Positions 3,229 to 61,634 are shown, counted from the first letter of the stretch. The stretch is DNA of 64,000 nucleotides from Gammaproteobacteria bacterium (GCA_965215365.1 CBDCDS010000003.1:544001-608000); one strand, 5' to 3'. Numbers and translations are program-made. Notes: a model not told the origin generated them from the letters alone.

Positions 3229-3272
3229 GGTAACCTCTCAAAATGCCACGGAGGGCATTTTGAGAGGTTACC
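3229..3272. repeat. MITE family A short copy, perfect hairpin with ACGGAG loop
   Basis: GGTAACCTCTCAAAATGCC-ACGGAG-GGCATTTTGAGAGGTTACC. Confidence 0.85.
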
Positions 3273-3347
3273 TCACGGAATAGGTCGTCGTCTGTTTCAT
3301 TTTCGTGCTGGTATTAATCCGCGTACTTTGGCATTATTTCATCCATT

Positions 3348-4532
3348 ATGAAAACGACAAGCATTATATTGCTGCTCAGCATGTTGCTGTGCATGGGGCC
3401 AGCCCCGGCGGCGGATCGCGCTCATCCGGAAAATCCGTTTACATCCACCTCCCGCAGCCCGGCGCCGGCCATGGCAAGCGAGCTTCCCGGCACGGGGATC
3501 AGTGGTGTCTATGAGGTGATGGTTGGCGCCGACGATGCCGGGCCGTTGCTTGAGTACTTCGGCGAGTTCGGCTTCAGTATCAAAAACGAAGCGGTGCTGG
3601 ACGCGGCGGTGGCGCAAGAACTCTATGGCGTCAATTCTGCCCTGCGTTCCATCCGCCTGCAGAACGGCGCCGTCGACAGCCATGGGCTGCTGCGTATCCT
3701 GGAATGGGAACAACCGTTAGGGCCGGGCGTCGGCTATGCGCCGCCGGAAACCGTGGGGCAGCGCATGTCGGTCATGCGCACCCGCGATATTGTCCGCCTG
3801 TACGACACGTTTTCCGACCTGCGTCATAAGGCCAGGGAACCCTGGCTTCCCGTGGAACCGATCTTTGATGATTTGTATGACCTGGGCACGGATAATGTTT
3901 CCATAACGCAACGGCGCGTCGGTGTGCGCGAGAACGCGGTGTACGGGCGCTTTTTCAACCATGTTTTCTTCCAGCGTTACGGCTACACCATCCCCGGCTA
4001 CGGCACCGTCAACCCGGCGGCGCCGTTGCAGACCAGTGAGTTTACTCACCATGACTTTATTATCGCCGGCGACCTGACGGTGGTGACGGCGTATTATGAG
4101 TCCGTGTTGGGGTTGCGCGCCGAGACTGAGCCGGTCGTTAGCGGCGACTGGCAGCCCGGCCCGGGGCGAGTGTTCCTGATGGAGCCGGGAGAGAGCCACT
4201 GGTACCGCGGCTTTGTGTCACCAAACAACATCTGCGGTAAACTCAAGTTTTTCGCTGCGCGCGACCCGGCGCATGAACGCGATCGCCGCCACCACCAGCG
4301 CCTCGGCGAGTTGGGCATCACCCTGCACAGCCTGTACACACCCGTGCCGGAGTATGTGCATGGGCTTGCCGTCGAACACGGTTTGCAGCCCTCAGCCATC
4401 ATGCACAACGAATTCTCCGAACGCTCATTCCTGTTCACCGGCCCGGACGGGGTCACCTGGCAAATCCTAGAGCAGCCGCTTGTTATGACCCCACCGACAA
4501 CCGAATTTGAACTGGTGAGGGTGAATAATTGA
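3348..4532 (+). CDS. Secreted VOC (glyoxalase-like) family protein
   Basis: Signal peptide; YEVMVG, YYESVLGL and FTGPDGVTWQILE VOC-like modules. Confidence 0.75.
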   Translation: MKTTSIILLLSMLLCMGPAPAADRAHPENPFTSTSRSPAPAMASELPGTGISGVYEVMVGADDAGPLLEYFGEFGFSIKNEAVLDAAVAQELYGVNSALRSIRLQNGAVDSHGLLRILEWEQPLGPGVGYAPPETVGQRMSVMRTRDIVRLYDTFSDLRHKAREPWLPVEPIFDDLYDLGTDNVSITQRRVGVRENAVYGRFFNHVFFQRYGYTIPGYGTVNPAAPLQTSEFTHHDFIIAGDLTVVTAYYESVLGLRAETEPVVSGDWQPGPGRVFLMEPGESHWYRGFVSPNNICGKLKFFAARDPAHERDRRHHQRLGELGITLHSLYTPVPEYVHGLAVEHGLQPSAIMHNEFSERSFLFTGPDGVTWQILEQPLVMTPPTTEFELVRVNN

Positions 4533-5938
4533 GCCTGCAAGCCCTCACTCGCCGTCACTTCCTGCAGGCCGGCAGCGCCGCCATGCTGGCCGCCCTGTAC
4601 CGCCCGGTGTTCGCCGCCCGCAAGCATTATGACGTCATTATCATCGGCGCCGGTCTGGCCGGATTACAGGCGGGACGCATGTTACAACACCAAGGGGTGG
4701 ATTTTTTGTTGCTGGAAGGCTCCGAACGTGTCGGCGGGCGGGTTTACACGCTGGATCACTTGCCCGGCCGGCCGGAAGCCGGGGGTGCCCGGCTGGGCAC
4801 GAATTACCAGGCGCTGAACCAGGCACTGGCGGAATTGAATATCGCCGCGACCAACCCCACAACGGGCGCGCCGGGGATGACGCTGCTGGTCAACGGCAGC
4901 CTCAGCGCTGCCGAAAACTGGCCCGCCAGCCCTGGCAATCGGCTGCCGGAAACGGCGAAAGAGGTGCCGCCATACCGGTTATTGTCAACGCTGCTGCGCA
5001 ACGGTAACTTCCTGTCGGCGCCGTTGGACTGGTGGCAACCGGAATTTAGCGAGCTGGATATCCCGTTGCAGGCGTACCTGCAACAGCTGGGCGCTGACGC
5101 TGAGGCCATCCGCCTGATAGATGCCAACCTCAATGGTGAAAGCATTGAGACGCTGTCGGCCTTGGACCTGCTGCGCAAGCTGGCAGTGTTGCAAAACGCC
5201 GGCGCGCCGCAGGAAGTCCGCGTCGGTATGCAACGCTTGCCCGAGGCCATGTATGACGCGCTCAAGGCGGCTGTGATGATGGGTAAACAGGTCACGAGTA
5301 TTGACTCTGCGAATGCAGGGGTGCGGCTGCGCACTGCCGACTCGGACAGTTTTACCTGCCGGCGGTGTCTGGTGGCGCTGCCGTTCAGTGTGTTGCGGCG
5401 GTTGCAGGTGCAGATGCCGTTATCCGAACCCAAGCAACAGGCCATTTCGCGCATGGGCTATACCCCTGTCACCCAAGTCTATCTGCGGCCGCGCAGCCCG
5501 TTCTGGCTGGCCGATGAACTGAGCCCGAATATGTGGACCGACACCGACCTGGGCCGGGTATTCACCCATACCGACGAACAGGGCGAAGTGCTGCGTCTGC
5601 GCGCCTGGATCCAGGGCGCCACGGCGCAACGACTGCACGGCATGTCAGACGCAGAGCTTGGCAGGCATATCGTGGCGCAGCTGGAACAGGCACGGCCGGC
5701 GGCAAAATCGCAACTGGAGGTGGAATGGATCATCTCCTGGGGCAAATATCCTTTCAGCCAAGGCGCGTTCTCCCATTACCTGGCCGGCGGTGTCGGGCAG
5801 TTCAGCCGCGCGGTGAGCAGCCCGGAAGGGCCGTTACACTTCATCGGCGCCCACACCGAACCGTCCGCCTCGGGCATGGAGGCAGCCGTCAAGTCCGGCA
5901 ACCGGGGCGCACAGGAAATCATCGAGCGCTTATCCTGA
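4529..5938 (+). CDS. Flavin monoamine oxidase family protein, Tat-exported
   Basis: TRRHFLQ Tat motif, IIGAGLAGL, RVGGR, GMEAAVKSG. Confidence 0.92.
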   Translation: MSLQALTRRHFLQAGSAAMLAALYRPVFAARKHYDVIIIGAGLAGLQAGRMLQHQGVDFLLLEGSERVGGRVYTLDHLPGRPEAGGARLGTNYQALNQALAELNIAATNPTTGAPGMTLLVNGSLSAAENWPASPGNRLPETAKEVPPYRLLSTLLRNGNFLSAPLDWWQPEFSELDIPLQAYLQQLGADAEAIRLIDANLNGESIETLSALDLLRKLAVLQNAGAPQEVRVGMQRLPEAMYDALKAAVMMGKQVTSIDSANAGVRLRTADSDSFTCRRCLVALPFSVLRRLQVQMPLSEPKQQAISRMGYTPVTQVYLRPRSPFWLADELSPNMWTDTDLGRVFTHTDEQGEVLRLRAWIQGATAQRLHGMSDAELGRHIVAQLEQARPAAKSQLEVEWIISWGKYPFSQGAFSHYLAGGVGQFSRAVSSPEGPLHFIGAHTEPSASGMEAAVKSGNRGAQEIIERLS

Positions 5939-5961
5939 CAGCCCTTGTCCAGATTACTTCA

Positions 5962-6137
5962 GGTAACCTCTAAACCCTCATGATCAGGGTGCTGCGCACC
6001 CTGATCATGAGGGTTTAGACACGGAAATGAAAAAGTGTAATTTTTCATTTCCTTAATTTTCAAGCACTGACGTGCTTGCAGTGACTGGCAGCACATCCCT
6101 GTGCTGCACGGGCACCTCGTGTTTGTGAGAGGTGCCC
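5962..6137 (+). mobile_element. MITE family A full copy
   Basis: GGTAACCTCT...AGAGGTGCCC termini; core is shared with 7913-8067 (inverted), 26221-26372 and 61512-61634. Confidence 0.88.
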
Positions 6138-6200
6138 TTCAACACCGGGTACAGGCTCGGTGGCGGGGATTTTTTACCGCAGGCAGGCTATACTCGCGCC

Positions 6201-7418
6201 ATGAGTGTGAGCGCAAACAAGACGATAGACTGGGATAAACTGGTCAGGTTGTTCGTCCCCGGCTCGGGTGTGACGCCGCCCTTGCTGGCCGGCAGGGAAG
6301 GACCTCTGCAAAAACTCGCCGATCTGGTTGGCTACCTGCAGGAAGGCGGCAGCGCTGCGCCCGGAGATGTCGTGCTGTTGGGGCCGCGCGGCAATGGTAA
6401 AACGGTATTGTTGAACGCGTTCAGACAGCAGTCAGACGGCAAGGATATCGATATTCTGTCGTTGAAAGCAAAACAGGTTAGTGACGAGGTCAGGCTTGCG
6501 ATATATCTGCTCCGTCAACGCGAAGTCTCGATGAAAGATGCTGAGGCGCTCAAACTTGACAAGGGAAAAGTGGGCTTGAATTTCGTGTCAGGAGAATTGA
6601 GCAGGATGAACCGGGAGGACCGGGAAGCCCACATGACCACCCACCTGTTTGACCTCCTGGCGGCCCGCTGCCGCAACAGGCCATTGATGGTGACCATTGA
6701 CGAGGCGCATACACTGGATGTCGAGACCGGGCGTCTGCTGCTGAACACCAGCCAGGCAGTACGAGAAACCGGCGCCCCATTCCTGCTTGCGCTGGCCGGG
6801 ACGCCCAACCTGCGCGATCACCTGGACCTTATGAGCGCCACCTTCTGGGATCGCGCAGAAATCATCAGCGTAGGCAGACTGGATAGTGCAGCCACCCGCG
6901 CCGCGTTATTGGAGCCTCTTAAGGCGTCCGGAGTCAGCGTTGAGCATGAGGCGCTGGAGGTGGTCAGCACCGAGAGCCAACAATACCCGTACTTCATCCA
7001 GGCCTGGGGCAAAGCCCTGTGTCTGGCGTTACGGGACCGGAAGGCCACACATATTGATACGTTGCTGGTTGACGCGGCCCGTCCGATCTTTGCGGAGAGA
7101 AGGATCGATTACTACGAAAAACGTTATGAGGAGCTAATCCGGCAGGACTTGCTTGAAGCCGCCAAGGCCGTGTCTGCGGGATTTGAGGACGCACAGGTCG
7201 TTGACAGTGATGTGTTAAAAGAGAATCTGGTTGCCGCCCTGTCTCTGGATTCACAGGGCGCGCTCGACCTGCTCAGAAAACTCTCTCATCTCGGGTTTAT
7301 CTGGAAACCACCGGCCAGCATTTACTACGAACCCGGCATTCCCAGCCTCATGGGCTATGTGTTGGCAGGGCGGGGGGAACTCTCTGGCGATGGAAAAAGC
7401 GCCAATCCCGTAGCATGA
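6201..7418 (+). CDS. AAA family ATPase (AAA_16/Orc1-like, probable C-terminal winged helix)
   Basis: FVPGSGVTPPLLAGRE, Walker A GPRGNGKT, Walker B TIDEAH, YPYFIQ; paralog of 41006-42286. Confidence 0.88.
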   Translation: MSVSANKTIDWDKLVRLFVPGSGVTPPLLAGREGPLQKLADLVGYLQEGGSAAPGDVVLLGPRGNGKTVLLNAFRQQSDGKDIDILSLKAKQVSDEVRLAIYLLRQREVSMKDAEALKLDKGKVGLNFVSGELSRMNREDREAHMTTHLFDLLAARCRNRPLMVTIDEAHTLDVETGRLLLNTSQAVRETGAPFLLALAGTPNLRDHLDLMSATFWDRAEIISVGRLDSAATRAALLEPLKASGVSVEHEALEVVSTESQQYPYFIQAWGKALCLALRDRKATHIDTLLVDAARPIFAERRIDYYEKRYEELIRQDLLEAAKAVSAGFEDAQVVDSDVLKENLVAALSLDSQGALDLLRKLSHLGFIWKPPASIYYEPGIPSLMGYVLAGRGELSGDGKSANPVA

Positions 7419-7524
7419 GCGTCCGCCCTTCAGGCTGATTTTATACCGGAAAATTCTGCGTTTGGTTACAAGCATCCTGTTTTGCTATACTTGGTGCAAT
7501 GAGCCGCTCGGAGAAACAAAGAAC

Positions 7525-7707
7525 TTGAAATATCGGTCGAACAAAGAACAAATTAAGGCTCTGCTGAGAAACTTTGGTTTGGCTGTTACTCTGGGCGGTC
7601 TGTTTTACGGCACTTTGGACGGCGGCAGCTTAACCATAACAGTAGTCTTGTTTGGAGCGGGCGCCATAATCGCATACATCGGCACTTTGGAGAAAAAGCA
7701 TGATTGA
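7525..7707 (+). CDS. Small 2-TM membrane protein (start uncertain)
   Basis: Two hydrophobic segments; stop overlaps the next ATG. Confidence 0.55.
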   Translation: MKYRSNKEQIKALLRNFGLAVTLGGLFYGTLDGGSLTITVVLFGAGAIIAYIGTLEKKHD

Positions 7708-7819
7708 AGTACTGACCCATCCTCTGATAGTGGGCACGTTCATATCCTCTACGATATTGCTGGGTGCCTGGTATCATGCCATGCAACAGGATGACGAGCC
7801 GGAGGAGGAAGATCGATGA
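7700..7819 (+). CDS. 39-aa single-TM peptide
   Basis: MIEVLTHPLIVGTFISSTILLGAWYHAMQQDDEPEEEDR; GGAG RBS; overlaps upstream stop. Confidence 0.5.
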   Translation: MIEVLTHPLIVGTFISSTILLGAWYHAMQQDDEPEEEDR

Positions 7820-7887
7820 ATATCAGCCTGGTGGTGGTCACCGGCCTGGTCATGTCGTGGGCAGCCCGGCGTCAGAACTCCGAATAG
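7816..7887 (+). CDS. 23-aa hydrophobic peptide
   Basis: MNISLVVVTGLVMSWAARRQNSE; GGAGGAGG RBS and ATGA overlap. Confidence 0.35.
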   Translation: MNISLVVVTGLVMSWAARRQNSE

Positions 7888-7912
7888 TTCCTGGCACGGA
7901 CAGATGTCTTAA

Positions 7913-8067
7913 GGGTGCCTCTCACAAACACGAGGCGCCCGTGCAGCACAGGGATGTGCTGCCAGTCACTGCAAGCACGTAAGTGCTTGAAAATGAAGGA
8001 AATGAAAAATCACACTTTTTCATTTCCGTCTCACAAATCCGCCCGGAGCGGATTTTTAGAGGTTACC
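7913..8067 (-). mobile_element. MITE family A full copy, inverted relative to 5962-6137
   Basis: Reverse complement of the family core; flanks TTAA / TTAG. Confidence 0.88.
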
Positions 8068-8094
8068 TTAGAAAACAACGTCAGAAAAATTGTG

Positions 8095-8159
8095 TTGACA
8101 TGTTGCAAACTGTAGTCTTAAATGTCATAAGGTTATGACATTCCTATCTGTTGCAAACT
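8095..8159 (+). promoter_or_regulatory. Sigma70-like promoter with palindromic operator upstream of the TonB receptor
   Basis: TTGACA 8095-8100; perfect palindrome AATGTCATAA-GG-TTATGACATT 8121-8142; direct repeat TGTTGCAAACT at 8101 and 8149. Confidence 0.65.
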
Positions 8160-8203
8160 TGGGCGAGCCTGCCCATGTACCTTGAGCGAGAGGGGCGACC
8201 ATT

Positions 8204-10588
8204 ATGTTAACGAATAAGTTACACCACACCAATATTCGTGCGGGGGGGCTGGTAGCGGCCTTTGCGTTCGCATTGACATCCTTTGTTCCGCAGTATTCCT
8301 ACGGTCAGGGTGCGCTGGAAGAGATCATCGTCACCGCAAGAAAGCGGGAGGAAAACCTGCAGGAGATTCCGTTGACGGTGAATGCGTTTACCGAAGCGGC
8401 ACTGGAGGCGCGCGGCATCACCTCGTTGCAGGATATTGCCGATTCCACGCCAGGCTTCGACTTTGCTCAGGCCTTCGGCAGGAATGATTTTCGTCCGGTC
8501 ATGAGGGGCCAGTCCAATATTGAGGGGCGCGCCAATGCCGGCCTGTTTTTGGAGGGGATTATCATTGAACAGGGCAACGCTACGATCCCGCTTAGCGCAT
8601 TGGAACGGGTCGAAGTAGTGAAAGGGCCACAGAGCACTCTGTACGGGCGCTCGACCCTAGCCGGCGCCGTCAACTATGTGTTGAAAAAGCCCGGCGATGA
8701 ATTTACAGGTGAAGTGACCGCCGAGTATGGCGAGCGTGACCATGTTCAGGTTGATTTACACGCCAGTGGCCCTATAGGTGAGGCTGCCGGGCTCGCCATC
8801 ACTCTGAGTCACTACGAACGGGGTGGTGAGTATGATAATTACTATCCGGGTAACGTACTGGGAACGCCCGAATACGAAAACGAAGTAGGCGGCGAAGAGA
8901 CCGACAGTTTGACAGCAGTCCTGACTTTCGATCCCACTGATCGTATCAGCCTGCAAGGTCACTTCATGTACGAGGAAACTGACGATGACCACTACGCCTT
9001 TGCCGTGCAACCCGCCAGCGCCAATAATTGCTATCGGGTGCCTCCGGGTACGCAGCCGATGCCGCCTGCAGGAACCCCTGTAGCGAGTGTGCCACGCATA
9101 GGCTCGCCTCATTATGGCGGTAGTGGTTATTATTGTGGGCGTATTGATGTGGACGATGTGCTGGCATACAACGAGGGCAATACCAAATTGGAGACCAGTT
9201 ACTTCAATGACCCGGGCACTGAGTATAAAACTACGCGCTTGGGCTTGAGGGCTGATATGGACGTGACCGATGCGGTTACTCTTACATCAGTGACCGGTTA
9301 CAATAATGTCGAGACACAGTCCAGGTGGGATTTATCCTGGGGCACTGAGGATCTGATCTTTTTTGGTCCCCGTGGCTTTGTCAGAGTAGGGTTTCTCGAC
9401 TCGGATGATGGTGATTTCGATGACTTTTCACAGGAACTGCGTCTGAGCTTTGACGGCGGGAACGCCTTCCGTTCTGTGTTTGGATTCTACTATTACGAAT
9501 CCGATTTCAAAAATCTGGATGGAGGAACTTCCGCATTTTCTGGGGCAATAAAGGAGACCTCTGCTCCATCAACTCTTACTGAGCAAGAGTACATTCAGAG
9601 TTGGTCGGTGTTCGGTTCAGTGGAGTTTGATTTCATGGAAAAAATGACGGTTGGTGCTGAGTTCCGCTATAATGAAGATGATATAGAGAAAGGTGGGGGT
9701 GGCGATACCATAAAACGCTCTTTTGATGCTTTCTTGCCCAAGTTCACTGCGAGCTATAAGGCAAACGACGACTTTATGCTCTACGCTAACATCTCCAAAG
9801 GCAACAAGCCGGGCGACGTGAATATCCAAGAAAATCTCCCTGACTCTGAAAGACCGGTAGATGAAGAAGACGCTTGGAACTTTGAGTTTGGTATAAAATC
9901 CGCTTGGATGGACAACCGTGTCATCGCCAATGCTGCGGTGTACCATATCGACTGGAGCGACCAACAGCTTACCACCACGCGTTTTATCAATAATGAACAG
10001 TTCTCTATCTTGGAAAACATAGGTAAATCCACCGTCACCGGCATCGAGCTTGATCTTGCTGTGCAGTTGACAGACTTCTGGGACGCTCGCATTGGTTATG
10101 CTTGGACCGATACCGAAATTGACGAATTGCTTTATGCGGTGGATGAGGGTGCACAAAGTGTGCCGGGCACTTTCAAAGAGGCAGCCTTGATTTTCGGCTA
10201 TACACCTGATGGCAACGTGTTAATCAGTGGGACGGAACTGCCTCAAACCTCCAAGCACCAGCTGAGCCTGTCCAGTACGTTGCATGGTAACGTCGCGGAT
10301 AGTTGGTCATGGTTCCTGCGCGGCGATTTCAACTATAACTCAAGGCGTTATGACCAAGTATATAATCTGGCTCACACCGGCAGCAGGGAAAGGGTCAATC
10401 TACGCGGTGGCATCAAAAGTGGTAACTTTGATGTTGAGGTCTGGGTAGACAATCTTTTCGACAATGAAACTCCGCCAGCACTGATCCGCTACGCCGAGTT
10501 TGGAGCGTTTTTCTCGACCACCAGGGTCATCGGCGTGACCCTGCCGGAAAAACGGCGCATCGGCGTCACCGCCCGCTACCGGTTCTGA
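8204..10588 (+). CDS. TonB-dependent receptor
   Basis: LEEIIVTARKREE TonB box, ERVEVVKGPQSTLYG plug motif, C-terminal RYRF. Confidence 0.97.
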   Translation: MLTNKLHHTNIRAGGLVAAFAFALTSFVPQYSYGQGALEEIIVTARKREENLQEIPLTVNAFTEAALEARGITSLQDIADSTPGFDFAQAFGRNDFRPVMRGQSNIEGRANAGLFLEGIIIEQGNATIPLSALERVEVVKGPQSTLYGRSTLAGAVNYVLKKPGDEFTGEVTAEYGERDHVQVDLHASGPIGEAAGLAITLSHYERGGEYDNYYPGNVLGTPEYENEVGGEETDSLTAVLTFDPTDRISLQGHFMYEETDDDHYAFAVQPASANNCYRVPPGTQPMPPAGTPVASVPRIGSPHYGGSGYYCGRIDVDDVLAYNEGNTKLETSYFNDPGTEYKTTRLGLRADMDVTDAVTLTSVTGYNNVETQSRWDLSWGTEDLIFFGPRGFVRVGFLDSDDGDFDDFSQELRLSFDGGNAFRSVFGFYYYESDFKNLDGGTSAFSGAIKETSAPSTLTEQEYIQSWSVFGSVEFDFMEKMTVGAEFRYNEDDIEKGGGGDTIKRSFDAFLPKFTASYKANDDFMLYANISKGNKPGDVNIQENLPDSERPVDEEDAWNFEFGIKSAWMDNRVIANAAVYHIDWSDQQLTTTRFINNEQFSILENIGKSTVTGIELDLAVQLTDFWDARIGYAWTDTEIDELLYAVDEGAQSVPGTFKEAALIFGYTPDGNVLISGTELPQTSKHQLSLSSTLHGNVADSWSWFLRGDFNYNSRRYDQVYNLAHTGSRERVNLRGGIKSGNFDVEVWVDNLFDNETPPALIRYAEFGAFFSTTRVIGVTLPEKRRIGVTARYRF

Positions 10589-10630
10589 GCAGGATACAGC
10601 AGTTTCCTCCGATACTTGTCGGGGCTTTAC

Positions 10631-10671
10631 CTGCGGGTGGTTTCGCTGAAACCGCCCGCAGTGTTTTTTTT
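10631..10671 (+). terminator. Rho-independent terminator
   Basis: CTGCGGGTGGTTTC-GCT-GAAACCGCCCGCAG hairpin followed by a T-tract. Confidence 0.85.
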
Positions 10672-10774
10672 CGATGACTTTGAATTTACTGACAGCTCTT
10701 GCCGCTCTAGTGGGCGGTGCTGTATTGGCCAGTTGGACCCGGGCACATACTTGATTTCAAGAATAACAGAGAGT

Positions 10775-11512
10775 ATGAGCATTGACGCGATACGCGCCGA
10801 TCTGGAGCGTTTCCCGGAACCGTTGCATTTACCGTTGCGTTACAACAGCCTGGGCAGCCCGTATGTGACGATCGAAACCGATGGCGCCACCGTCACCCGC
10901 CTAGCTGAAGACTCTCTCATTAACACGTTCCGTCGGGTGCTGCTCGATCCCCTGCGCGGGCTGGTGATGTTGATGTCACCGAGCTCTCGGCACGAGGACC
11001 TTGCCATTGCCACCGATGGTCTGGTCGAAGCGATAACCCGAGTCATGCGTATCGGTTGTACACCGTTGAGAGCGACGCGTTGGGGCGATGACAATCAGGG
11101 CATGGTGGAAGCCGACGAAAGCTATTATATCGGCGCCAAGGCGGATGCTTATCTTGCCGCGAAGAGGGTCGGGCTTCAGGCCGGAGAGCGGTTTACCCGC
11201 GAGCATGTGCCGGATCTGGTCGTCGAAGCCACCGTCACGCACTATGATGCCTACAAGCTGGAAGCATATAAACGCCTAGGTGTGACCGAGTACTGGCAGA
11301 TAAAAGCGGATAAACGGGAAGACCTGCTGAAAGAAGCCGATGTGCTGCTCATGGAGGTGCAATCCGATACGGCTATCGCCGTCTCCGGCCTGTTGCCCGA
11401 GGTCACCCCGGCTCTGCTTGTTGAATGCCTGAACAAGCTGAATGTCACGTCCAGGCATGAGTGGCATGAGGTAGTTAATCAGGTATTGCGCGCGCGGCAT
11501 CATATCTATTGA
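10775..11512 (+). CDS. Uma2 family (DUF820) endonuclease-like protein
   Basis: MSPSSRHE, EADESYYIG, PDLVVEA, KLEAYKRLGVTEYW. Confidence 0.85.
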   Translation: MSIDAIRADLERFPEPLHLPLRYNSLGSPYVTIETDGATVTRLAEDSLINTFRRVLLDPLRGLVMLMSPSSRHEDLAIATDGLVEAITRVMRIGCTPLRATRWGDDNQGMVEADESYYIGAKADAYLAAKRVGLQAGERFTREHVPDLVVEATVTHYDAYKLEAYKRLGVTEYWQIKADKREDLLKEADVLLMEVQSDTAIAVSGLLPEVTPALLVECLNKLNVTSRHEWHEVVNQVLRARHHIY

Positions 11513-11575
11513 CAACGACTGACCTGTGCAAAAACAGATACACCACTTTATTCACACCACCACCGACGAGTACTT

Positions 11576-12448
11576 ATGAAAATTACCTTCACCCTCGCAT
11601 GGGCTGGCGCTGCCCTGCTCGCCAGCGCCAGCCTGTTTGCTCAGATAGATTTTGCCACCGGCACAGGTTACATCCAGGCGCAGCGTAAAATTCATTGCTC
11701 CTTAAAAGACAACGACCCGGTGACCTATATGTGGCAGGGCAGGGGCTATGCGCGGGTGCCGGGGGAACGGGACAAGCTGCTGTTCAAGGTGCTGGGCATG
11801 AACGTGCGCCAGTGCGTCACCGTCAACGATGCGGAGAAGGGCGAAGGATACCGTATGGTGTCACGGGAAATCATGTTGTACCTGGACCCGCAAACCGGAG
11901 AGATATTGCGCGAGTGGGACAACCCCTGGACCGGGGAGACCGTGGCAGTACTGCATGTCGCCAATGACCCGGTGAACCAACCGCCGCATTTCGCGGTGGG
12001 CAGGGACGGCAAGCAACGCCGGTTTGAGCCTATGATGATAGGCGACACCGCGTTTTTGGCGTATGAAATTCCACTGTTTTATACCAACCCGCTGGGCGGA
12101 GACTACCAAAAGTATGTGGGCAACCGCTACCACGCCACAGAGATCTTCGATTTTACCGCCGACATCAACGATATTGCCGACCTGTCTGAAGATACCGCCC
12201 AGGTCAATGTCGCCTGGGTACGTATGGCCCCCTGGCTGCCGTGGATGAAAATGGGCAGCCGCGCCGGGTTGACGTATTTCAACGCAGTTGGTGCCAAGCT
12301 GAACAGCTGGGACGAGCTGCCGGCCTTGATGAAGGATGAAATCAAGGCCAACTACCCGGACTATACCAGCCCGCCCCCGGGTGACGACGCCAGACCGAAC
12401 GAAACCAGTTGGACTTACTTCAAGAAAATCAAGGATGCCGCCGAGTAG
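11576..12448 (+). CDS. DUF1838 family secreted protein
   Basis: Signal peptide; LFKVLGMNVRQC, YLDPQTGEIL..WDNPWTGETV.V.HVANDPVN, WLPWMKMG, PNETSWTYFK. Confidence 0.85.
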   Translation: MKITFTLAWAGAALLASASLFAQIDFATGTGYIQAQRKIHCSLKDNDPVTYMWQGRGYARVPGERDKLLFKVLGMNVRQCVTVNDAEKGEGYRMVSREIMLYLDPQTGEILREWDNPWTGETVAVLHVANDPVNQPPHFAVGRDGKQRRFEPMMIGDTAFLAYEIPLFYTNPLGGDYQKYVGNRYHATEIFDFTADINDIADLSEDTAQVNVAWVRMAPWLPWMKMGSRAGLTYFNAVGAKLNSWDELPALMKDEIKANYPDYTSPPPGDDARPNETSWTYFKKIKDAAE

Positions 12449-12504
12449 CCGGTAGAGGTTCCCTTGGGTCAATCCAGGGGCTTGTCCGGTTGCTCACCCG
12501 AATG

Positions 12505-12639
12505 CTAGGGTCGCGGCGCCAGTAAACCTTCAATACGGCTGACCCGGTCGGCAAGATCATCCAACCGGCTCCCTTGACGCAAGATGAGCCCCGCCAGTGC
12601 GATAGCCGAGCCGATGATCGCAATAAGTTCAGGTGACAT
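12505..12639 (-). CDS. Small TM + coiled-coil protein (MSPELI type)
   Basis: MSPELIAIIGSAIALAGLIL...RVSRIEGLL; AAGGAG RBS. Confidence 0.65.
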   Translation of the reverse strand: MSPELIAIIGSAIALAGLILRQGSRLDDLADRVSRIEGLLAPRP

Positions 12640-12767
12640 AATTTTCTCCTTATTCAACGGTTCAATCATGGTTGTCGTCCCTCCCAAAGTGTGCTGGCAA
12701 TTATAGCAAAAATTTTAAGATGGAGGGCATTTTTGCTATGTAAATTTTGCAAATTTACATACAGTCG

Positions 12768-12807
12768 GGGCGTGCAACACCCTGATCATGAGGGTTTAGA
12801 GGCTACC
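12768..12807 (-). repeat. MITE family A partial copy overlapping the MFS stop codon
   Basis: CACCCTGATCATGAGGGTTTAGAGG matches the arm of the 5962 copy. Confidence 0.75.
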
Positions 12808-14044
12808 TCAATACAGCATTCCGATTCCGGCGTATCAATACGACGATGAGCAGCGCCGACACGGCACACAGGGTTATCAGCAAATCGAAAGCCGGCAGGT
12901 ACGACCCCTGGGCGTCGCGCACAGTGCCCAGGTATTTTATGCCGGCGGCACCGGCAAGGGAGTCCACGGCGGTCATCAGCGCCAGGATCTTGCCGTAGGA
13001 GGCACCGGCGAAATATTCTGCCAGAACCTGCTGGATCATGCTGAACGTCCCGCCGAAACCCATACCGAACACCACCGAGTATGCATACAGCATGAAGAGC
13101 TTGTCGGCGGCGACGAGGCGCAGCAATGCCAGCCCCAGTATCAGGCTCAGGACCGTGCAGAACATGACCCAGAGCTTGGGAAGTTTGTCGCTGAGCCAGC
13201 CGAGCAGCAGTTTACCGATGATGGCGCACCAGAAGAACAGGCTGAATATCAACGGCAACCGGGCTGCGTCCACGCCCAGGTCTTTACCGATGAAGATGGA
13301 CTGGTGCTGGATCATGCTCATCGTGGCGAACCAGAGCGCGCCGGTGACAAACGCCAGCATATAAAACACCGGCATTTTCACAGCTTGTCCCAGAGTCGGC
13401 CCTGCACTTGCCGTCACCGCGACGCCCGCGGTTGCGGCCGGCAAGGCATCGCCGTCCACATTGAGCCCCAGTTCCTCGGGGCGGTTGCGCACCAGCAGCA
13501 AGACTGCGCCTACCATCATCACGCTGCCCAAAATCGCAATCATCAGTGCCGCCTGACGCCAGCCCTGGGTGATCAGCGTCTCCCTGGCGACTAACGGAAA
13601 TATGGCGCCGCCGACGGTGGACCCGGTCAGCAACAGCCCCAGGGCCAGCCCTCGATGACGTTTGAACCAGCGCGTCAGTATCAGCATGTTGGGCACCAGG
13701 CCACAAGCGGCCAGACCCAGGGCAAAGACAATGTAAATCGCAGTCAGCTGGTGCAGGGAGGTGATGGCCGGATAAAAACACAGCGCCGCGATCAGGGCAA
13801 CAATTCCGAGCAGCATGATCATGCGCGTGGAATAGCGGTCAAACAAGGCCCCGATGAACGGCGTGAGCAAGGCTGCCACCACATAAAACAGCGCGGCCGG
13901 GCGCGTCACCTCGGCACTGCTCCAGCCAAACTCGGCGATGAGTTCGGGATAAAATAACGGCAAGGTGTACATCAGTATGCCGTTGTTGGCCGCGTAAATC
14001 AGAAACAGGCCCAACAGCACCCACCACCCGTAGAAAATTTTCAT
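12803..14044 (-). CDS. MFS transporter
   Basis: IFYGWW, GALFDRYSTR, WFKRHRGLA, GWLSDK; about 12 hydrophobic segments. Confidence 0.95.
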   Translation of the reverse strand: MKIFYGWWVLLGLFLIYAANNGILMYTLPLFYPELIAEFGWSSAEVTRPAALFYVVAALLTPFIGALFDRYSTRMIMLLGIVALIAALCFYPAITSLHQLTAIYIVFALGLAACGLVPNMLILTRWFKRHRGLALGLLLTGSTVGGAIFPLVARETLITQGWRQAALMIAILGSVMMVGAVLLLVRNRPEELGLNVDGDALPAATAGVAVTASAGPTLGQAVKMPVFYMLAFVTGALWFATMSMIQHQSIFIGKDLGVDAARLPLIFSLFFWCAIIGKLLLGWLSDKLPKLWVMFCTVLSLILGLALLRLVAADKLFMLYAYSVVFGMGFGGTFSMIQQVLAEYFAGASYGKILALMTAVDSLAGAAGIKYLGTVRDAQGSYLPAFDLLITLCAVSALLIVVLIRRNRNAVLR

Positions 14045-14229
14045 ATCAATAAACCTCTTGAAGGAGGGCACATAAGCAGAGGTTACTTGCTATCGAACGC
14101 ACGCTTTGTCGCCAGTATAGCAGCAATAGCAAACAGGAATCCGGTGGCTGACAAAAACAGCGCGCGCCGTTGCGGTTATTTTCATATAATGGGTGCTTCT
14201 AACCACCTTTTTTGCAAGAGAACAGGACC

Positions 14230-15471
14230 ATGAGCGTCAATTACATAGACGAACACTTGGATGAGGTACGCGCCGAATTCAAACTGCTGGAGCACTGGGT
14301 GTACCTGAACGCAGCCGACCAGATGGTGCCGGGCAATTACTGGCTGCACGCAGTGCGGGAATTTTATAACTATGTCGAGTACGGCCGCATGGAGGACATT
14401 CCGGTTGCCGACATCGCCACCCATCCGTTCCTGTTGCCCAAGTGGGATGAGAGCGTGCGCCTGAGCGCCAAATTCATCAACGCCGACCCGGACGAGGTCA
14501 CCAACGCCTACCGTCCGGCCATCACCACGAACCTGATCCTGTACAACATGATGGAGTGGGAAGCCGGTGACAATGTGGTGATTACCGACCTGTCCTACCC
14601 GTCTATCCCCTACATCCTGCAGGACCTGCGGCGCCGTTACGGCCTCGAGCTCCGGGTGGCGCGTAACGTCAACGGCGAGATTCTCATGGAAGACCTGGAA
14701 CAGCTGGTGGATGGCAACACCCGCATGGTGATCGTGGATCGCACTACGGCGTTCTGCGGCTTCACCTTCGATATGCAGGAAGTCTGCCGCATCGCCCATG
14801 CACAGGGCGCGCTGGTGCTGGACGATGCCATACAAAGCCTGGGCGCGGTGAATATAGACGTGAAAGCCGACGATGTGGACTTCCTGGTATCGGGCGCCTA
14901 CAAGTGGCAGTGCGGCCCGGAGGGCGCCGGCATTTTCTATATCAAGCGCGCCGTGATGGACCGCATCGACGCCCGCTACCGCAACTATATCTGGGCCGAT
15001 GTCCCCGGTTCCATGCCGTTTTCGCACCGCGACCACGACAACATCGAAAGCTGGACCTGTCCCCCGGTCAACAACGCCAACCGCTTCTCGCAGGACACCA
15101 CCATCGGCTCCTCCCTGTTCGGCTGGGTGGCCACGCTCAAGTTTTACGAGAAGATCGGCATCAAAAACGTGGAGGAACGGGTGCGACGCCTCGGTACCTA
15201 TACCATCGAGCGGTTACAGGACATCGGCTGCCGGGTCACCTGCCCCACCGCCCCGAATAAACGCCACGGCCTGATCACCTACACCAGCGGCGATTACGAC
15301 AAGGATCAGGCCTTTTTCGAGCGCTGCGCCGCCCCCGGCCGCTGCCGGAGGCCCATTAAAATCTCCATGCGCACCTTAGGCGGTATCGGCAACCTGCGCG
15401 TCAGCACGCATTTCTTCAACACCGAGGAAGAGATTGACTACCTGATCGATTTGCAGAAGCAGATGCTGTGA
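14230..15471 (+). CDS. Aminotransferase class V PLP-dependent enzyme
   Basis: VYLNAA, LDDAIQSLG, SGAYKWQCGPEG (PLP lysine), LRVSTHFFNTEEEID. Confidence 0.93.
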   Translation: MSVNYIDEHLDEVRAEFKLLEHWVYLNAADQMVPGNYWLHAVREFYNYVEYGRMEDIPVADIATHPFLLPKWDESVRLSAKFINADPDEVTNAYRPAITTNLILYNMMEWEAGDNVVITDLSYPSIPYILQDLRRRYGLELRVARNVNGEILMEDLEQLVDGNTRMVIVDRTTAFCGFTFDMQEVCRIAHAQGALVLDDAIQSLGAVNIDVKADDVDFLVSGAYKWQCGPEGAGIFYIKRAVMDRIDARYRNYIWADVPGSMPFSHRDHDNIESWTCPPVNNANRFSQDTTIGSSLFGWVATLKFYEKIGIKNVEERVRRLGTYTIERLQDIGCRVTCPTAPNKRHGLITYTSGDYDKDQAFFERCAAPGRCRRPIKISMRTLGGIGNLRVSTHFFNTEEEIDYLIDLQKQML

Positions 15472-15492
15472 GCAGCGTCTCTGAAGACAGCC

Positions 15493-16614
15493 TCAGCCAA
15501 GCCTGTCAAGCCATTTTCCCAGCGGCAAGGTGTTAATTCCGTCTTGCTCTTCGGCGCGGTCCAATTGTAGTACAAGTTGTATAGACCGTTCAGGTTGCAA
15601 CTTGTCGGAGTAATACCTGAGGCTGTTACTGATGGTGGTATCCGATTTTTTCACCTCAATCAGGGTATGCACCCGCCGGTTGCGCGTGACCACAAAATCC
15701 ACTTCCCGTTTTTCCTTATCGCGTAGGTAAAACAGGCCCCAGTTCTCCCCGGTGGAATCTTTTCTGAACTGGATATGCTTCAACAGACAACAAGCGACCA
15801 GGTTTTCCAGTTGTGCGCCCTGCGTCTCATCATACGCCGCCGCGCAATCGTAAAAAAACACCCGCTTTTCCTTACGGATGCTGCGGGCGACGCGGCTTGA
15901 ATAGGGCGGCAGCAGAAACACGAGGTAAAGTTTCTCCAACAGTTCCACCCAGCTTCTGACTGTTGGCGGGGATACCCCCAGGTTGCGTGCAAGACCGTCA
16001 TACTTGACCGGTTTGCCCACGCCATCGCGCAGCAATTCCACCAGGTCGGCAGCGCCGCGCCAGGCATTGAGACGAGACAGGTCGCGACTGTCTTCCCTGA
16101 CAACCAGATCCAGCCGATCATTAAGCAGTCGCTGCGCTTCATCCGGATTCAGCAAGGCTTCCGGGAACCCCCCTGTTTGCAGCAATCGCAGCACGCGTTC
16201 GGCGAGGGGAACATCAGGCAGGAAGTATTTCGCTTCGGCGATGTCAACAGGATGCAGCCGGTAGAAATAATGCCTGCCGGTCAAGGCATCCCCGGTTCTG
16301 CGCAACGCATCAAGACGGGCACTGCCGGTGACAAGCACGGGAGGTGTATTGCCGAATTCATCAACCACCCCTTTCAGCAGATTTTTCCACTTGGGCGCCT
16401 TGTGCAATTCATCCAGCACCACCAGCGACGCATCCTTGGGCCAGGCTACCTCCCGAATAATCCTGCGGTCCCTGACGATGTCCCAGTTCAGATATTGACC
16501 CTCCTGGTCCAGCAACGATTTGGCCAGAGTCGTTTTACCACACTGACGCGGCCCGGCCAGGATGACCATTTTTTTATCCAGGTCCGCGCGCAGCTTGGGC
16601 AACAGGTAGCGCAT
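15493..16614 (-). CDS. AAA_14 / DUF4143 ATP-binding protein
   Basis: GPRQCGKTT, VLDELHK, VTGSA, GGFPE, YLRDKEKREVDF, IEVK. Confidence 0.92.
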   Translation of the reverse strand: MRYLLPKLRADLDKKMVILAGPRQCGKTTLAKSLLDQEGQYLNWDIVRDRRIIREVAWPKDASLVVLDELHKAPKWKNLLKGVVDEFGNTPPVLVTGSARLDALRRTGDALTGRHYFYRLHPVDIAEAKYFLPDVPLAERVLRLLQTGGFPEALLNPDEAQRLLNDRLDLVVREDSRDLSRLNAWRGAADLVELLRDGVGKPVKYDGLARNLGVSPPTVRSWVELLEKLYLVFLLPPYSSRVARSIRKEKRVFFYDCAAAYDETQGAQLENLVACCLLKHIQFRKDSTGENWGLFYLRDKEKREVDFVVTRNRRVHTLIEVKKSDTTISNSLRYYSDKLQPERSIQLVLQLDRAEEQDGINTLPLGKWLDRLG

Positions 16615-16673
16615 CCGACCATTATAAATAACAACTTATTTTGGTCAAGACTATTCTGAAGCAGTATTTATTT

Positions 16674-16718
16674 TAGCCCGCATATCTCACCAGGTGATGC
16701 GAAGATCGCGCCGGATTT
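16674..16718 (+). repeat. MITE family B partial copy
   Basis: TA-GCCCGCATATCTCACCAGGTGATGCGAAGATCGCGCCGGATT. Confidence 0.8.
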
Positions 16719-16903
16719 TTTGATGCGCCCCTTCCCCATCCCGGTGGATTTCCTCAAGACATTTCAGTTGCCGGCTAACGGGGAGCGTGACTGATCGGCA
16801 CCTTGCCGCTGCCGGCCTTCACCCGACACAAGCATCAGCTGGAGAGGTCAGCGCACCCCCAACGTCGCCTTGCTTCCTGGCTGCCCGTAGTCTGGCCGGA
16901 GGG

Positions 16904-17025
16904 TGTCCAGGTTCTGTCCAAGTTCAATGCATATGAGACTCAGGGGTGTGCTGTGTGAGTTGTTGATAATACTCCATCGGGGTCAATAAACCCATACCGT
17001 CATGCGGGCGGGTAGGTATTGTAGT
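16904..17025 (-). mobile_element. IS481-like right end with transposase 3' remnant
   Basis: Minus strand encodes RPHDGMGLLTPMEYYQQL (integrase C-terminus), then ...TTGAACTTGGACA end. Confidence 0.75.
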
Positions 17026-17251
17026 GTTCTAATGAGGGGTTATGCGGCTGTACGAGGCCGTCGCGTACCCCGCAGCACTTCCTTGTGCCGCGGGCGTCCC
17101 TGTTAGTCCGCTACCAGATATGCGGGGTGTGTGCGGTTACTGCTAGATAGTACCGTCGGTCTGGCCCGACAGGTTGACCGTCGCGCAGCCCTTGCCGCCC
17201 ATGAACAGGAGGTAGGCGCTGCCGGCGGTCGTCCATTGGTTATTTTCCTCA

Positions 17252-17648
17252 TCAAGACATCCGGTTAATAGCGCGATGATGCCTAGGCCCTGTTTCGTAG
17301 TTCTCTTGGCTTTTATTTTTGTCCGGGGATATTTTGATGAGCGTTTTGCTTTTGCTTTTTGCAAGTTTTGATATCATTTTGGGGACTAGTGGTTCGAGAT
17401 ATTCAGCTTTAACTTCTCGGGCTGATAGAACAACGATTGTAATGGGTAATGTGTTCAGGTTTTGTTGATGTTCCATACTTTTATCAACAGTGATAAGAGC
17501 GTCGAAACCTGCTGTTGCTGCTTTTCTTAGAAGTTCACCGTTTTCTGTTCCTCTCCAGTCCTGCGCGTTGTGTGGTTATCGCCGTGATATGTTCTGGTAA
17601 ATATTTGATTATTTTTCGATCTACAGACTCATCAAGCAACAATTTCAT
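17252..17648 (-). pseudogene. DUF5615 PIN-like toxin, frameshifted
   Basis: MKLLLDESV...QRAG, then a +1 shift to WRGTENGELLRKAATAGFDALITVDKSMEHQQNL. Confidence 0.82.
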
Positions 17649-17678
17649 TTTCTTTCATCTTCTTTACCTTTTGATTAA

Positions 17679-17817
17679 GGCCACCTCTAATTTTTAGAGG
17701 TGGCCTTATGATAACACTGCTGCTCTTTCCACCTAACACACTGCGCTTGATGCGCCCTCGCTGGTCTTGGTGAGATATGCGGGCTAAATACCACGGAGAG
17801 CATTTTTAGAAGTTCCC
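17679..17817. mobile_element. Nested MITE A/B insertion in the DUF433 gene 3' end
   Basis: TTAA on both sides (17675-78 and 17818-21); contains family A ends and a family B segment (17712-17786). Confidence 0.85.
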
Positions 17818-18017
17818 TTAAGCAACTTAATAAAATTAAGAGCTTGTTCACGTGTTACGGTTGGGAAGCTGTCTGTGAAGCCATCCAAGCTGCCACCGTC
17901 TTCAATATATTGAAGCAAATGAGTAATGGGGACTCGGGTTCCGGCAAAGACCGGTGTTCCTCCGAGAATATTCGGGTTGCTGGTGGCAATATCTGTTATT
18001 TGGGTGTAAGTGTTCAT
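17784..18017 (-). CDS. DUF433 antitoxin (C-terminus replaced by MITE sequence)
   Basis: NPNILGGTPVFAGTRVP...FPTVTREQA. Confidence 0.88.
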   Translation of the reverse strand: MNTYTQITDIATSNPNILGGTPVFAGTRVPITHLLQYIEDGGSLDGFTDSFPTVTREQALNFIKLLKGTSKNALRGI

Positions 18018-18174
18018 CGTTTTCTCTATAGCGTTGAATAACCGACGAAAGCTTCTTTATAGTCCATGTCAGCGATTGGGCGGGTCAACGCGAGTTTTCG
18101 GCCGGGGGCAGTGGCTGTCGAGACCAAGTTACCAAACCAGTGTAAGGAGAATTAGATGAACTTGTCAAGAAAAT

Positions 18175-18193
18175 TGTCCAGGTTCAATACATA
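18175..18193 (-). mobile_element. Isolated IS481-like right end
   Basis: TGTCCAGGTTCAATACATA, identical to the ends at 40756 and 42382. Confidence 0.7.
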
Positions 18194-18362
18194 ATTAAAG
18201 CTGTCCCGCGTCACATTGGGGTTAGTGGACGAGAGGATCAGCTTCATGCGGCCGGGCGTGGCGTGGTCGCCGCAGCCGCAGCCGTCCACGACTGGAGAGA
18301 CCGATGCAAGCGTGACGGTGCAGATGCTCGGGTTGCATCCTGCCCGAAATGTTATAGCATTA

Positions 18363-18388
18363 GGGTGCCTCTATTAATAGAGGCTCCC
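18363..18388. repeat. MITE family A minimal copy
   Basis: GGGTGCCTCTATTAATAGAGGCTCCC. Confidence 0.65.
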
Positions 18389-18436
18389 ATTATATCAACT
18401 GTTTCAGGTCCCAACTCACGTAGAGGTTATACATCC

Positions 18437-42734: not shown

Positions 42735-42899
42735 AAAAAAACATGGGATTTGTCGCAATCGGAAATAGTTATACAGGTTCGACTGCGTATTCTGGCGAAC
42801 GTGAACACTGATTCCGGTTCATCGTGAACGCGGTTTTTTCCCACGCATGGCGTGTTGTGTCTTTTTACCTCAAGTGTTCACGATGAGTGTCTAGGTTCA
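42735..42899 (+). repeat. Direct repeat copy 2, overlapping the tupC 3' end
   Basis: See 40629-40767. Confidence 0.9.
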
Positions 42900-45184: not shown

Positions 45185-45185
45185 A

Positions 45186-45212
45186 GGACACCTCTGACAA
45201 TCAGAGGTATCC
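45186..45212. repeat. MITE family A minimal copy
   Basis: GGACACCTCTGA-CAA-TCAGAGGTATCC. Confidence 0.6.
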
Positions 45213-45241
45213 TTGCAGCATGGGAATATCCGTCTCAGAAA

Positions 45242-60197: not shown

Positions 60198-60201
60198 TGA
60201 T

Positions 60202-61530
60202 ATGAATAACGCCCAATTCGTCAGCTGGTTCCGGTCGGCCTCGCCCTATATCCGTATCCACCGCGGCAGGACTTTCGTCATCCAGGTCGGTGACCAGACG
60301 TTACACAGCGACGGCTTCACCGCGCTGGTGCATGATCTGGCCCTGCTCACCAGCCTGGGGGTCAGGCTGGCGCTGGTGTTCGGCGCGCGCACGACTATTG
60401 AAGCCGGCCTGGATGAAAAAAAGCTGGCTTCCAGGTACCACGCCGGGATCCGGGTCACCGATGCAAAGACCATCGGCGTCGTCAAGGAGGTGGTCGGGCG
60501 CCTGTTACTGGAGATACAGGCCAGACTGTCCACAGGGCTCGGCAACACTCCCATGTCCAATGCCGCCATCAGGGTGAGCACCGGCAATTACGTGTCTGCA
60601 AAACCTTTGGGAGTTATAGACGGAGTGGACTACGAGCTGACCGGCACAACCCGCGCGGTCGATACCGGGGCCATGACTGCCAAGCTGGATAACGGTGAAA
60701 TCATTGTTCTGCCACCGCTGGGCTATTCCGTAACGGGGGAGGCTTATAACCTGTCGGCGCCAGCGCTGGCGGCGGAGGTGGCGGTGGCCCTGCGTGCAGA
60801 CAAGCTGATTTACCTGACCGAAGCAGACCTCCTGTCCACCTTGACCAGCGCGCCCCCCACCAGGCAGTTGAGCCGGGATGACGCGCAGCAGTTGTTGCGC
60901 CGGCTTGATGAGCAGGCGGACAGTTATCAATACCTGCAACATGCCCTGGAAGTCAGTGACCGCGGGGTCGAGCGGGTACACCTGCTGAACCGGGAAGAGG
61001 ACGGCGCCATTCTCAATGAGCTGTTCACCCGGGATGGGTCGGGGTTGATGATTACCACTTCTCCTTATGATGTGGCGCGCACCGCCGACGGCAACGACAT
61101 CAACGGCATACTGGACCTGATCGAACCCCATGAACAGCAGGGCGCCCTGGTGAAGCGTTCCCGGGAGAAACTGGAACTGGAAGCCGAACGTTTTACCATT
61201 CTCACCCGGGATGGAGTCATCATTGGCTGTGCCGGTTTGTATCCTTATCCTGAAGACGGTATGGGAGAGATTGCCGGCTTGGCGGTACACCCGGATTACC
61301 AGGATGCCGGCCACGGCAACCGCCTGCTGGATAAAGTCGAACAGGAAGCACAGCGTCAGGGCCTGCACAGCGTGTTTGTACTGACCACCCAGGCCCAACA
61401 CTGGTTTCTGGAACGAGGCTTTAAGGAAGCCGCTTTGGCAAGCCTGCCCATGGCAAGGCAGGACTTGTACAACTACCGGCGTAATTCCAAGATTCTACTC
61501 AAGGAACTGGAGGGTGCCTCTAATTTTTAG
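60202..61530 (+). CDS. argA: Amino-acid N-acetyltransferase
   Basis: WFR...PYI..HRG.TFV, ELFTRDG.G, GNAT domain, YNYRRNSK. Confidence 0.97.
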   Translation: MNNAQFVSWFRSASPYIRIHRGRTFVIQVGDQTLHSDGFTALVHDLALLTSLGVRLALVFGARTTIEAGLDEKKLASRYHAGIRVTDAKTIGVVKEVVGRLLLEIQARLSTGLGNTPMSNAAIRVSTGNYVSAKPLGVIDGVDYELTGTTRAVDTGAMTAKLDNGEIIVLPPLGYSVTGEAYNLSAPALAAEVAVALRADKLIYLTEADLLSTLTSAPPTRQLSRDDAQQLLRRLDEQADSYQYLQHALEVSDRGVERVHLLNREEDGAILNELFTRDGSGLMITTSPYDVARTADGNDINGILDLIEPHEQQGALVKRSREKLELEAERFTILTRDGVIIGCAGLYPYPEDGMGEIAGLAVHPDYQDAGHGNRLLDKVEQEAQRQGLHSVFVLTTQAQHWFLERGFKEAALASLPMARQDLYNYRRNSKILLKELEGASNF

Positions 61531-61634
61531 ACACGGAAACAGAAAAATGCCCGAAAAAGTGGGACATTCCGTTTCCTTCATTTTCAGTCACTTACGTGAC
61601 TGCAGTTACTGGCAGCACCTCCTTGTGCTGCGGG
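61512..61634 (+). mobile_element. MITE family A diverged copy overlapping the argA stop
   Basis: GGGTGCCTCTAATTTTTAGACACGGAAA...GCAGCACCTCCTTGTGCTGC. Confidence 0.8.

Follow-up and report, generated by a model that had tools for sequence, protein, structure and literature searches.

Correia/NEMIS repeats of Neisseria and ERIC repeats of enterobacteria are small non-coding intergenic elements with inverted ends and short duplications, which fold when co-transcribed and affect neighboring transcripts. REP/BIME repeats, associated with RAYT transposases, are dispersed intergenic hairpin modules, often mosaic and found in both orientations. CsrA/RsmA is among the main global post-transcriptional regulators of Gammaproteobacteria, and its known antagonists are dedicated small RNAs. 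Here we describe a repeat, termed family A, in a 64,000-nucleotide stretch of DNA from Gammaproteobacteria bacterium (GCA_965215365.1, CBDCDS010000003.1:544001-608000; "the window" below means this whole stretch). Family A is marked by hairpins with GGA in their loops, and the conservation and CsrA-like sequence of these loops suggest an interaction between the repeat and CsrA.

The hairpin core GCAGCAC-N6-GTGCTGC has five matches with at most one mismatch in the whole window (at 6088, 7943, 17072, 26324, and 61612), against 0.07 expected, and none of 100 shuffles of the window reached five. An earlier note on this DNA had listed GGA-loop hairpins along the window, and direct reading, together with this count, bears out their positions and strands. 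The loop is AGGGAT at 7943-7962 (plus strand) and at 6088-6107 and 26324-26343 (both minus), and AAGGAG at 61612-61631 (minus). ACGGAG loops are found at 3229-3272 (plus), about 17790 (plus), and 26226-26261 (minus), and a hairpin TTGCGTCC-ATGGAT-GGACGCAA occupies 27681-27704 (plus). The fifth match to the core, absent from that list, lies at 17069-17094 (minus) and has the loop AAGGAA. In the source genome (2.73 Mb in three contigs, GC 0.58), there are 24 exact core hairpins, and 24/24 carry the loop A[AG]GGA[TCG] on one strand. A loose definition of GGA-loop hairpins yields many by chance alone (51 observed vs ~37 in shuffles of the window); the signal resides in repeated, long-stemmed ANGGAN hairpins, not in such loose ones.

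The hairpins belong to a larger unit. Family A units are non-coding, 150-165 nt long, and made up of five hairpins in a row. Hairpins 1 and 5 take in the 5' and the 3' terminal repeat, respectively. The loop is ANGGAN in hairpin 2, of the GTAA type in the long hairpin 3, and NNGGAN in hairpin 5; hairpin 4 is rich in A/U. For two window copies, RNA folding gave exactly these five hairpins (z -6.7 and -13.2). When window positions 7900-8075 were used as a blastn query, 83 matches were obtained in the source genome, and 42 long copies could be aligned over ~155 nt. A profile search of the same genome gave 101 hits, 95 of them non-overlapping and ~35 full length; profile searches replaced a first fuzzy search for hairpin 2, blind to the loop, which was too loose (177 hits vs 78 in the reversed genome). 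The units begin and end as GGNNNCCTCT...AGAGGNNNCC, with 5' GGNNNCCTCTAAAAAT repeated as the reverse complement of the 3' end, and GGAACCTCTGA-type ends are present in distant families. The target duplications are 4 bp long and AT-rich (WTWA/YTAR-like), e.g., TATA, TAAA, ATAA, TTAA, TTGA, TTAG, and CTAG; most of the copies listed have matching duplications and a few do not. Because the ends are inverted repeats and matching 4-bp duplications flank most copies, we conclude that family A is a non-autonomous transposon, a miniature inverted-repeat transposable element (MITE). No autonomous partner or parent insertion sequence was found in the source genome, where terminal-repeat pairs 0.4-3.5 kb apart enclose host genes only. 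A terminal-repeat pattern scan of three other carrier genomes likewise gave no clear parent-element candidate, and a distant family A copy had no blastn match among plasmids. A conserved stretch, GAAAATGAAG, was considered as a start codon with a ribosome-binding site and rejected, as it pairs with CATTTTC and merely lengthens hairpin 3.

Could the GGA loops simply be inherited? According to one explanation, they have no function: GGA would persist only because the copies stem from a small number of recent master elements, and any resemblance to CsrA sites would be accidental. The chance frequency of loose GGA-loop hairpins and the fact that most element columns are at least 95% conserved within the source genome both speak for it. 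We therefore looked at substitutions on a parsimony tree of 130 of the 196 unique copies, i.e., those that are full-length with fewer than eight gaps. The six GGA sites changed 1.33 times on average (1, 0, 0, 0, 2, and 5 changes), the five remaining sites of the same loops 13.6 times (27, 9, 10, 13, and 9), other loops 6.65 times, stems 3.54 times, and linkers 3.19 times per site (one-sided Mann-Whitney, p 0.004 and 0.01). Neighboring loop positions thus change about ten times more often than GGA, contrary to what mere descent suggests. Among unique copies, GGA is present in the hairpin-2 loop in 164/167 and in the hairpin-5 loop in 147/151, and the first A of the hairpin-2 loop in 167/167.

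The pattern is most evident in hairpin 2, for which 36 diverse sequences were assembled from 18 families plus nearer relatives. Compensatory changes are seen at 7/7 stem pairs; 94.5% of cells are paired, vs 81.2% in shuffles (0/500 as high) and 11-53% when the partners are slid. Loop positions A10, G12, and A14 are invariant in 36/36 sequences and the middle G is kept in 35/36, the exception being a GGA shifted by one base. The two closing pairs (A-U and C-G) are less variable than the middle of the stem. Hence stems have been replaced through compensatory changes while A-GGA stayed fixed. The earlier note had claimed that GGA is constant and the stems vary, and had proposed a covariance model over all copies; both the conserved GGA and the covarying stem pairs agree with it.

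Family A is old and widespread in Gammaproteobacteria. By blastn, it is present in 18/41 related genomes, including the source: 15/22 of the same genus, one of another genus of the family, and one of another family. A covariance model built from 55 diverse copies gave full-length matches in 24/151 genomes of a sample drawn evenly across the class Gammaproteobacteria, one per family; the 24 include the source genome and one unpublished genome (23/150 without the latter). The element-bearing records are metagenome-assembled genomes (MAGs) of uncultured Gammaproteobacteria, several with sponge-style isolate names. Since about one in six sampled families has the element, a cultured carrier should exist. 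We inspected one locus in each of 18 other carriers, leaving out that of the unpublished genome, and found GGA in the hairpin-2 loop in 18/18. That GGA is kept in different families despite turnover of stems and other loops argues further against an absence of function, as does a census of perfect hairpins in the source genome (stem of at least 6 bp, 6-nt loop), in which ANGGAN accounts for 173 of 1454 loops. We regard a reading without function as very improbable.

To define the strand on which the hairpins are selected, stem mismatches were scored on the GGA strand over the 196 unique copies. G.U exceeds A.C in hairpin 2 (31:9), hairpin 3 (23:2), and hairpin 4 (27:6), 81:17 in total, and the same is true when pair positions of hairpins 2-4 are counted (16:4, sign test p 0.012). 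The ratio is 48:24 in hairpin 5, where the alignment is disturbed by indels, and terminal-repeat hairpin 1 has no bias (19:22). Strand-symmetric mutation would give equal numbers, and the inequality therefore indicates that selection acts on the GGA strand as a single strand. Consistently, hairpins 2-4 folded as RNA are more stable in sense than in antisense in 124/130 copies, by a mean of 4.5 kcal/mol. RNA as the selected form is the simplest reading; single-stranded DNA is also compatible. A test by replication strand found no usable replichores on contig C3, where GC skew and the strand bias of genes are too weak to define them.

We then compared hairpin 2 with known CsrA sites. The consensus obtained by systematic evolution of ligands by exponential enrichment (SELEX) is RUACARGGAUGU (PMC4347634), in which ACA and GGA do not vary and a hairpin loop presents GGA; the structure-based RsmE consensus is (A/U)CANGGANG(U/A) (PMC6849547). 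Hairpin 2 reads (Y)AC-ANGGAU-GU(R), the sequence of the optimal CsrA/RsmE recognition element. The RsmE 10-mer is matched by 24/36 of the diverse hairpin-2 copies. The SELEX 12-mer is matched at 12/12 positions in 5/36 and at 11/12 in 14/36, so that 19/36 copies have the likeness to the SELEX core that the earlier note had pointed out. In the genus-level set, the number matching the RsmE 10-mer drops to 49/167, owing to an abundant subfamily whose closing pair is U-A.

A protein partner is encoded in the source genome, as the earlier note's proposal needs: there is one copy of csrA (PF02599, 90 bits vs a cut-off of 27), with an intact reading frame free of stops, and it looks canonical. The gene lies on contig C3 upstream of tRNA-Ser(GCT). 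Beyond the tRNA, a segment occurs twice that duplicates its final ~20 nt and carries a GGA-loop module found elsewhere in the genome (AACTAC; see below). These segments look like remnants of integration at the tRNA end.

Family A is not the only repeat with this loop. When the 173 ANGGAN hairpins of the census are sorted by inner stem, 70 are hairpin 5, 43 hairpin 2, 31 the AACTAC module, nine CGTCCC, eight CGCCCC, and seven GCGTCC, an insert module of another repeat called family B; five are singles. The loop thus occurs on about six stem families from different modules, with at least four repeat modules besides family A, and, judged from the census table, roughly a third of the repeated hairpin families have GGA in the loop. 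Only a few family B copies have the ~75-nt insert with the GGA hairpin, and this insert is found inside family A copies too. Family B itself is a MITE with 248 blastn matches genome-wide, most copies being without the middle 75 nt that hold the GGA hairpin. Composites of modules have up to four GGA hairpins in ~240 nt. At C3:2120443-2120874, outside the window, six identical 72-nt units are arranged head to tail and split a family A copy within an intergenic region of 1.1 kb. Each unit has two GGA-loop hairpins, AAATTCG-TCTGGAA-CGAATTT and AAACTAC-ACGGAT-GTAGTTT. A CsrA dimer can bridge two sites within a limited distance range; the GGA sites are ~90 nt apart between hairpins 2 and 5 of the basic unit and ~35-40 nt apart in the 72-nt array units and composites.

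These data bear on the possibility that hairpins and GGA loops serve transposition, being recognized by a transposase or a host DNA-binding factor in extruded or single-stranded DNA, with the likeness to CsrA sites a coincidence. Family A is, after all, a MITE, bounded by terminal repeats and by target duplications of 4 bp; its conservation tracks element lineages and not host genes, hairpin 5 lies within the terminal-repeat region, mRNA-sense orientation is not preferred (see below), and G.T wobble would be tolerated in single-stranded DNA as well. However, DDE enzymes, which mobilize elements of this build (terminal repeats plus target duplications), act on double-stranded DNA and recognize it by sequence, whereas the sequence of the hairpin-2 stem has been replaced throughout. 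The terminal-repeat hairpin itself, moreover, lacks the strand asymmetry (19:22), the same ANGGAN loop recurs in several unrelated modules, and the source genome has yielded no partner transposase. We consider this explanation unlikely, though not far-fetched.

According to the earlier note, the repeats rewire neighboring transcripts, and we analyzed their orientation relative to genes. Among 84 hits with hairpin 2 or 5 in the source genome, 19 are sense (GGA on the mRNA strand) and 27 antisense between genes of the same direction; 24 lie in divergent and 12 in convergent regions, and two inside genes. In 94 loci of relatives, mostly from one MAG, the numbers are 23 sense, 40 antisense, 19 divergent, and 13 convergent. 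When hairpin-2-bearing copies from the source genome and relatives' loci are pooled, 37 are sense vs 63 antisense (p 0.012). The median distance to the downstream start is 138 nt for sense vs 52 nt for antisense copies, and 13/37 sense vs 35/63 antisense copies lie within 60 nt of the start (p 0.06). In divergent regions, the sense-read gene is the nearer one in only 13/40 cases (13:27); in convergent regions, there is no orientation bias (13:10). Since sense copies are scarce beside downstream starts in tandem and divergent regions alike, the GGA strand looks avoided in leaders, not recruited, and the adaptive rewiring of neighbors proposed in the earlier note finds no support. The bias fits an active sense strand that is usually harmful (mostly repressive), and it fits the competing explanations too.

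One of these is an RNA-level role without CsrA: Shine-Dalgarno mimicry, binding of another protein, or an antisense terminator made of hairpin 4 and its U-rich tail, with UCC loops pairing with ribosome-binding sites. The predominance of antisense copies between same-direction genes (63:37) fits this, loops such as AAGGAG are also Shine-Dalgarno-like, and, read in antisense, hairpin 4 with the T-rich tail was called terminator-like in each of the two copies scanned. The antisense of hairpins 4-5 (window 7988-8058, minus) scores 32.7 bits (E 0.0017) against the model of the plasmid ctRNA_pND324, below its gathering score of 45. This weak match can be counted on the same side; it probably reflects only the architecture of a hairpin plus a U-tail. 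However, wobble asymmetry and fold energies favor the GGA strand, the U-rich tail is absent in several distant lineages, and the two conserved closing pairs with A-N-GGA-U agree better with the CsrA/RsmE consensus than with a simple Shine-Dalgarno sequence. An RNA role of this kind therefore appears improbable.

The reading that we prefer, tentatively and at somewhat less than an even chance, is that family A carries CsrA-type sites selected on RNA of the GGA strand, which serve the element, are mostly unwelcome in gene leaders, and have side effects on neighbors and possibly on the pool of free CsrA. Here the selected form would be RNA and its ligand the CsrA dimer, which would bind any transcript carrying the element in sense. 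The site would serve the element lineage, for instance as a carried-over leader of a lost parent transposase or by protecting or silencing read-through RNA, and would not rewire neighbors to the benefit of the host. Sense copies in the leaders of host genes would mostly be harmful and be purged. Collectively, transcribed copies and multi-hairpin composites may titrate CsrA. The motif fit, the presence of csrA, and selection on the GGA strand support part of the earlier interpretation; adaptive rewiring is dropped.

Several of our observations weigh against the preferred reading. In-genome conservation alone proves little, because within one genome GGA does not stand out from most other parts of the element. 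Copies share descent, and p-values therefore overstate the case; the full turnover of stems around an unchanged loop is independent of them. The presence of csrA does not discriminate (21/24 element-bearing vs 102/127 other genomes): the gene is found in 123/151 genomes of the class-wide sample and in 20/23 other carriers, the three without it being 62-75% complete, and its distribution neither supports nor refutes a role for CsrA. The basic unit has only two GGA sites, ~90 nt apart. For one window copy, the two strands have nearly the same fold energy (-65.3 vs -66.1 kcal/mol). No conserved promoter or terminator was found on the GGA strand, the sole terminator-like call in two copies scanned being antisense. 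In composites, the AACTAC module runs opposite to family A, so that a compound element can have GGA loops on both strands; the earlier claim that paired hairpins share a strand is right for family A and fails in composites. The deficit of sense copies among the pooled loci is hard to reconcile with wide use in host mRNAs, and it rests on genes called by a crude codon-usage caller of open reading frames (ORFs), with starts set to the longest ORF.

A stronger proposal is that this MITE family, together with its sister modules, provides mobile decoys for CsrA. Transcribed copies and composites or arrays, such as the one of six 72-nt units with its 12 GGA loops, would jointly stand in for CsrB/RsmY/Z, for which no conventional gene was detected. 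If so, transposition would directly tune a global post-transcriptional regulator. We find this rather improbable. Searches for a conventional sponge RNA were negative: the CsrB, RsmZ, and RsmY models (RF00018, RF00166, and RF00195) have no match in the source genome, and an Rfam scan of the window at gathering score gave only two tRNA genes (25444-25527 and 36170-36242, both plus). Hairpin 2 has only a 10-bit local match to RsmV. No GacA/UvrY-type box was found in a scan of the source genome, and no terminator-like site was called on the sense strand of two copies scanned. Candidates for conventional Csr small RNAs from a genome scan for GGA density were rejected, since they looked coding or unstructured.

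In the window, family A is represented by copies in various states of preservation. Two are full. The copy at 7912-8066 (plus) has hairpin 2 (AGGGAT) at 7943-7962 and a hairpin-5 variant, AAATCCGC-CCGGA-GCGGATTT, at 8035-8055, and folds as RNA into five hairpins (z -6.7). The copy at 26223-26373 (minus) has hairpin 2 (AGGGAT) at 26324-26343 and hairpin 5 (ACGGAG, 15-bp stem) at 26226-26261, with RNA fold energies of -78.2 kcal/mol in sense and -66.5 kcal/mol in antisense. A copy at 6009-6138 (minus; model positions 2-127), with hairpin 2 GCAGCAC-AGGGAT-GTGCTGC at 6088-6107, ends at its 3' side in a different long palindrome. Another, at 61521-61632 (minus), is partial (model positions 31-127) and has hairpin 2 GCAGCAC-AAGGAG-GTGCTGC at 61612-61631. 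A broken copy at 17677-17815 consists of a hairpin-1 fragment at 17677-17706 (a weak match) and a hairpin-5-like end with an ACGGAG loop at ~17785-17815 (plus), with a family B end between them, and a weak partial match lies at 45185-45229 (plus; model positions 2-46, E 0.00078). At 3229-3272 (plus), the two terminal repeats are joined by an ACGGAG loop into a minimal palindromic unit with a 19-bp stem. The hairpin-2-like CCCGCGGCAC-AAGGAA-GTGCTGCGGG at 17069-17094 (minus) stands in a different sequence context. A family B copy with the extra ~75-nt insert module is found at 27535-27790 (plus), the module hairpin GTTGCGTCC-ATGGAT-GGACGCAAT being at 27681-27704.

Two inverted family A copies (window 6009-8066) flank a gene at 6132-7418 (plus) and a small ORF at 7462-7707. 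Over window positions 3000-19000, short-read contigs of three DNA runs break at repeats. A further repeat family (TGTCCAGGTTCAATAC...) occurs at 16915-17011, 40756-40895, and 42382-42478. A perfect 89-nt direct repeat (40628-40716 and 42734-42822) flanks an ORF at 41006-42286 (minus); the whole could be an insertion sequence that made an unusually long duplication.

Full-text literature searches gave no report of CsrA-type sites on MITEs or REPs among the matches listed. The nearest case is from P. putida KT2440, where, in RNA immunoprecipitation sequencing, RsmA, RsmE, and RsmI all bound RNA from intergenic DNA next to copies of ISPpu8 and a long palindrome described as an "insertion site", unexplained in the available part of PMC7937890. 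It concerns the flanks of a full insertion sequence and not a MITE, and, as far as that part of the paper goes, the likeness to family A is one of description only. For Salmonella, PMC12594629 goes no further than proposing that the 5' RNA of IS200 may interact with CsrA. A genuine interaction of family A with CsrA would link transposon biology to CsrA, which might control the element or be loaded or titrated by it, and would explain the Rsm pull-down of RNA beside an insertion sequence in P. putida.

Correia/NEMIS and ERIC elements resemble family A in their small size, inverted ends, and short target duplications and have no sequence relation to it. To our knowledge, a conserved CsrA-type loop has been reported for none of them. 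The insert module at 27681-27704, with its GTAG-like lead, resembles the REP style; unlike family A, REPs are without terminal inverted repeats and 4-bp duplications. With the Csr/Rsm sponge RNAs (CsrB, RsmY, and RsmZ; Rfam clan CL00106), family A shares strings of short hairpins with GGA loops. It differs from them in having only two sites per basic unit and no conserved terminator, and in being mobile and dispersed in dozens of copies.

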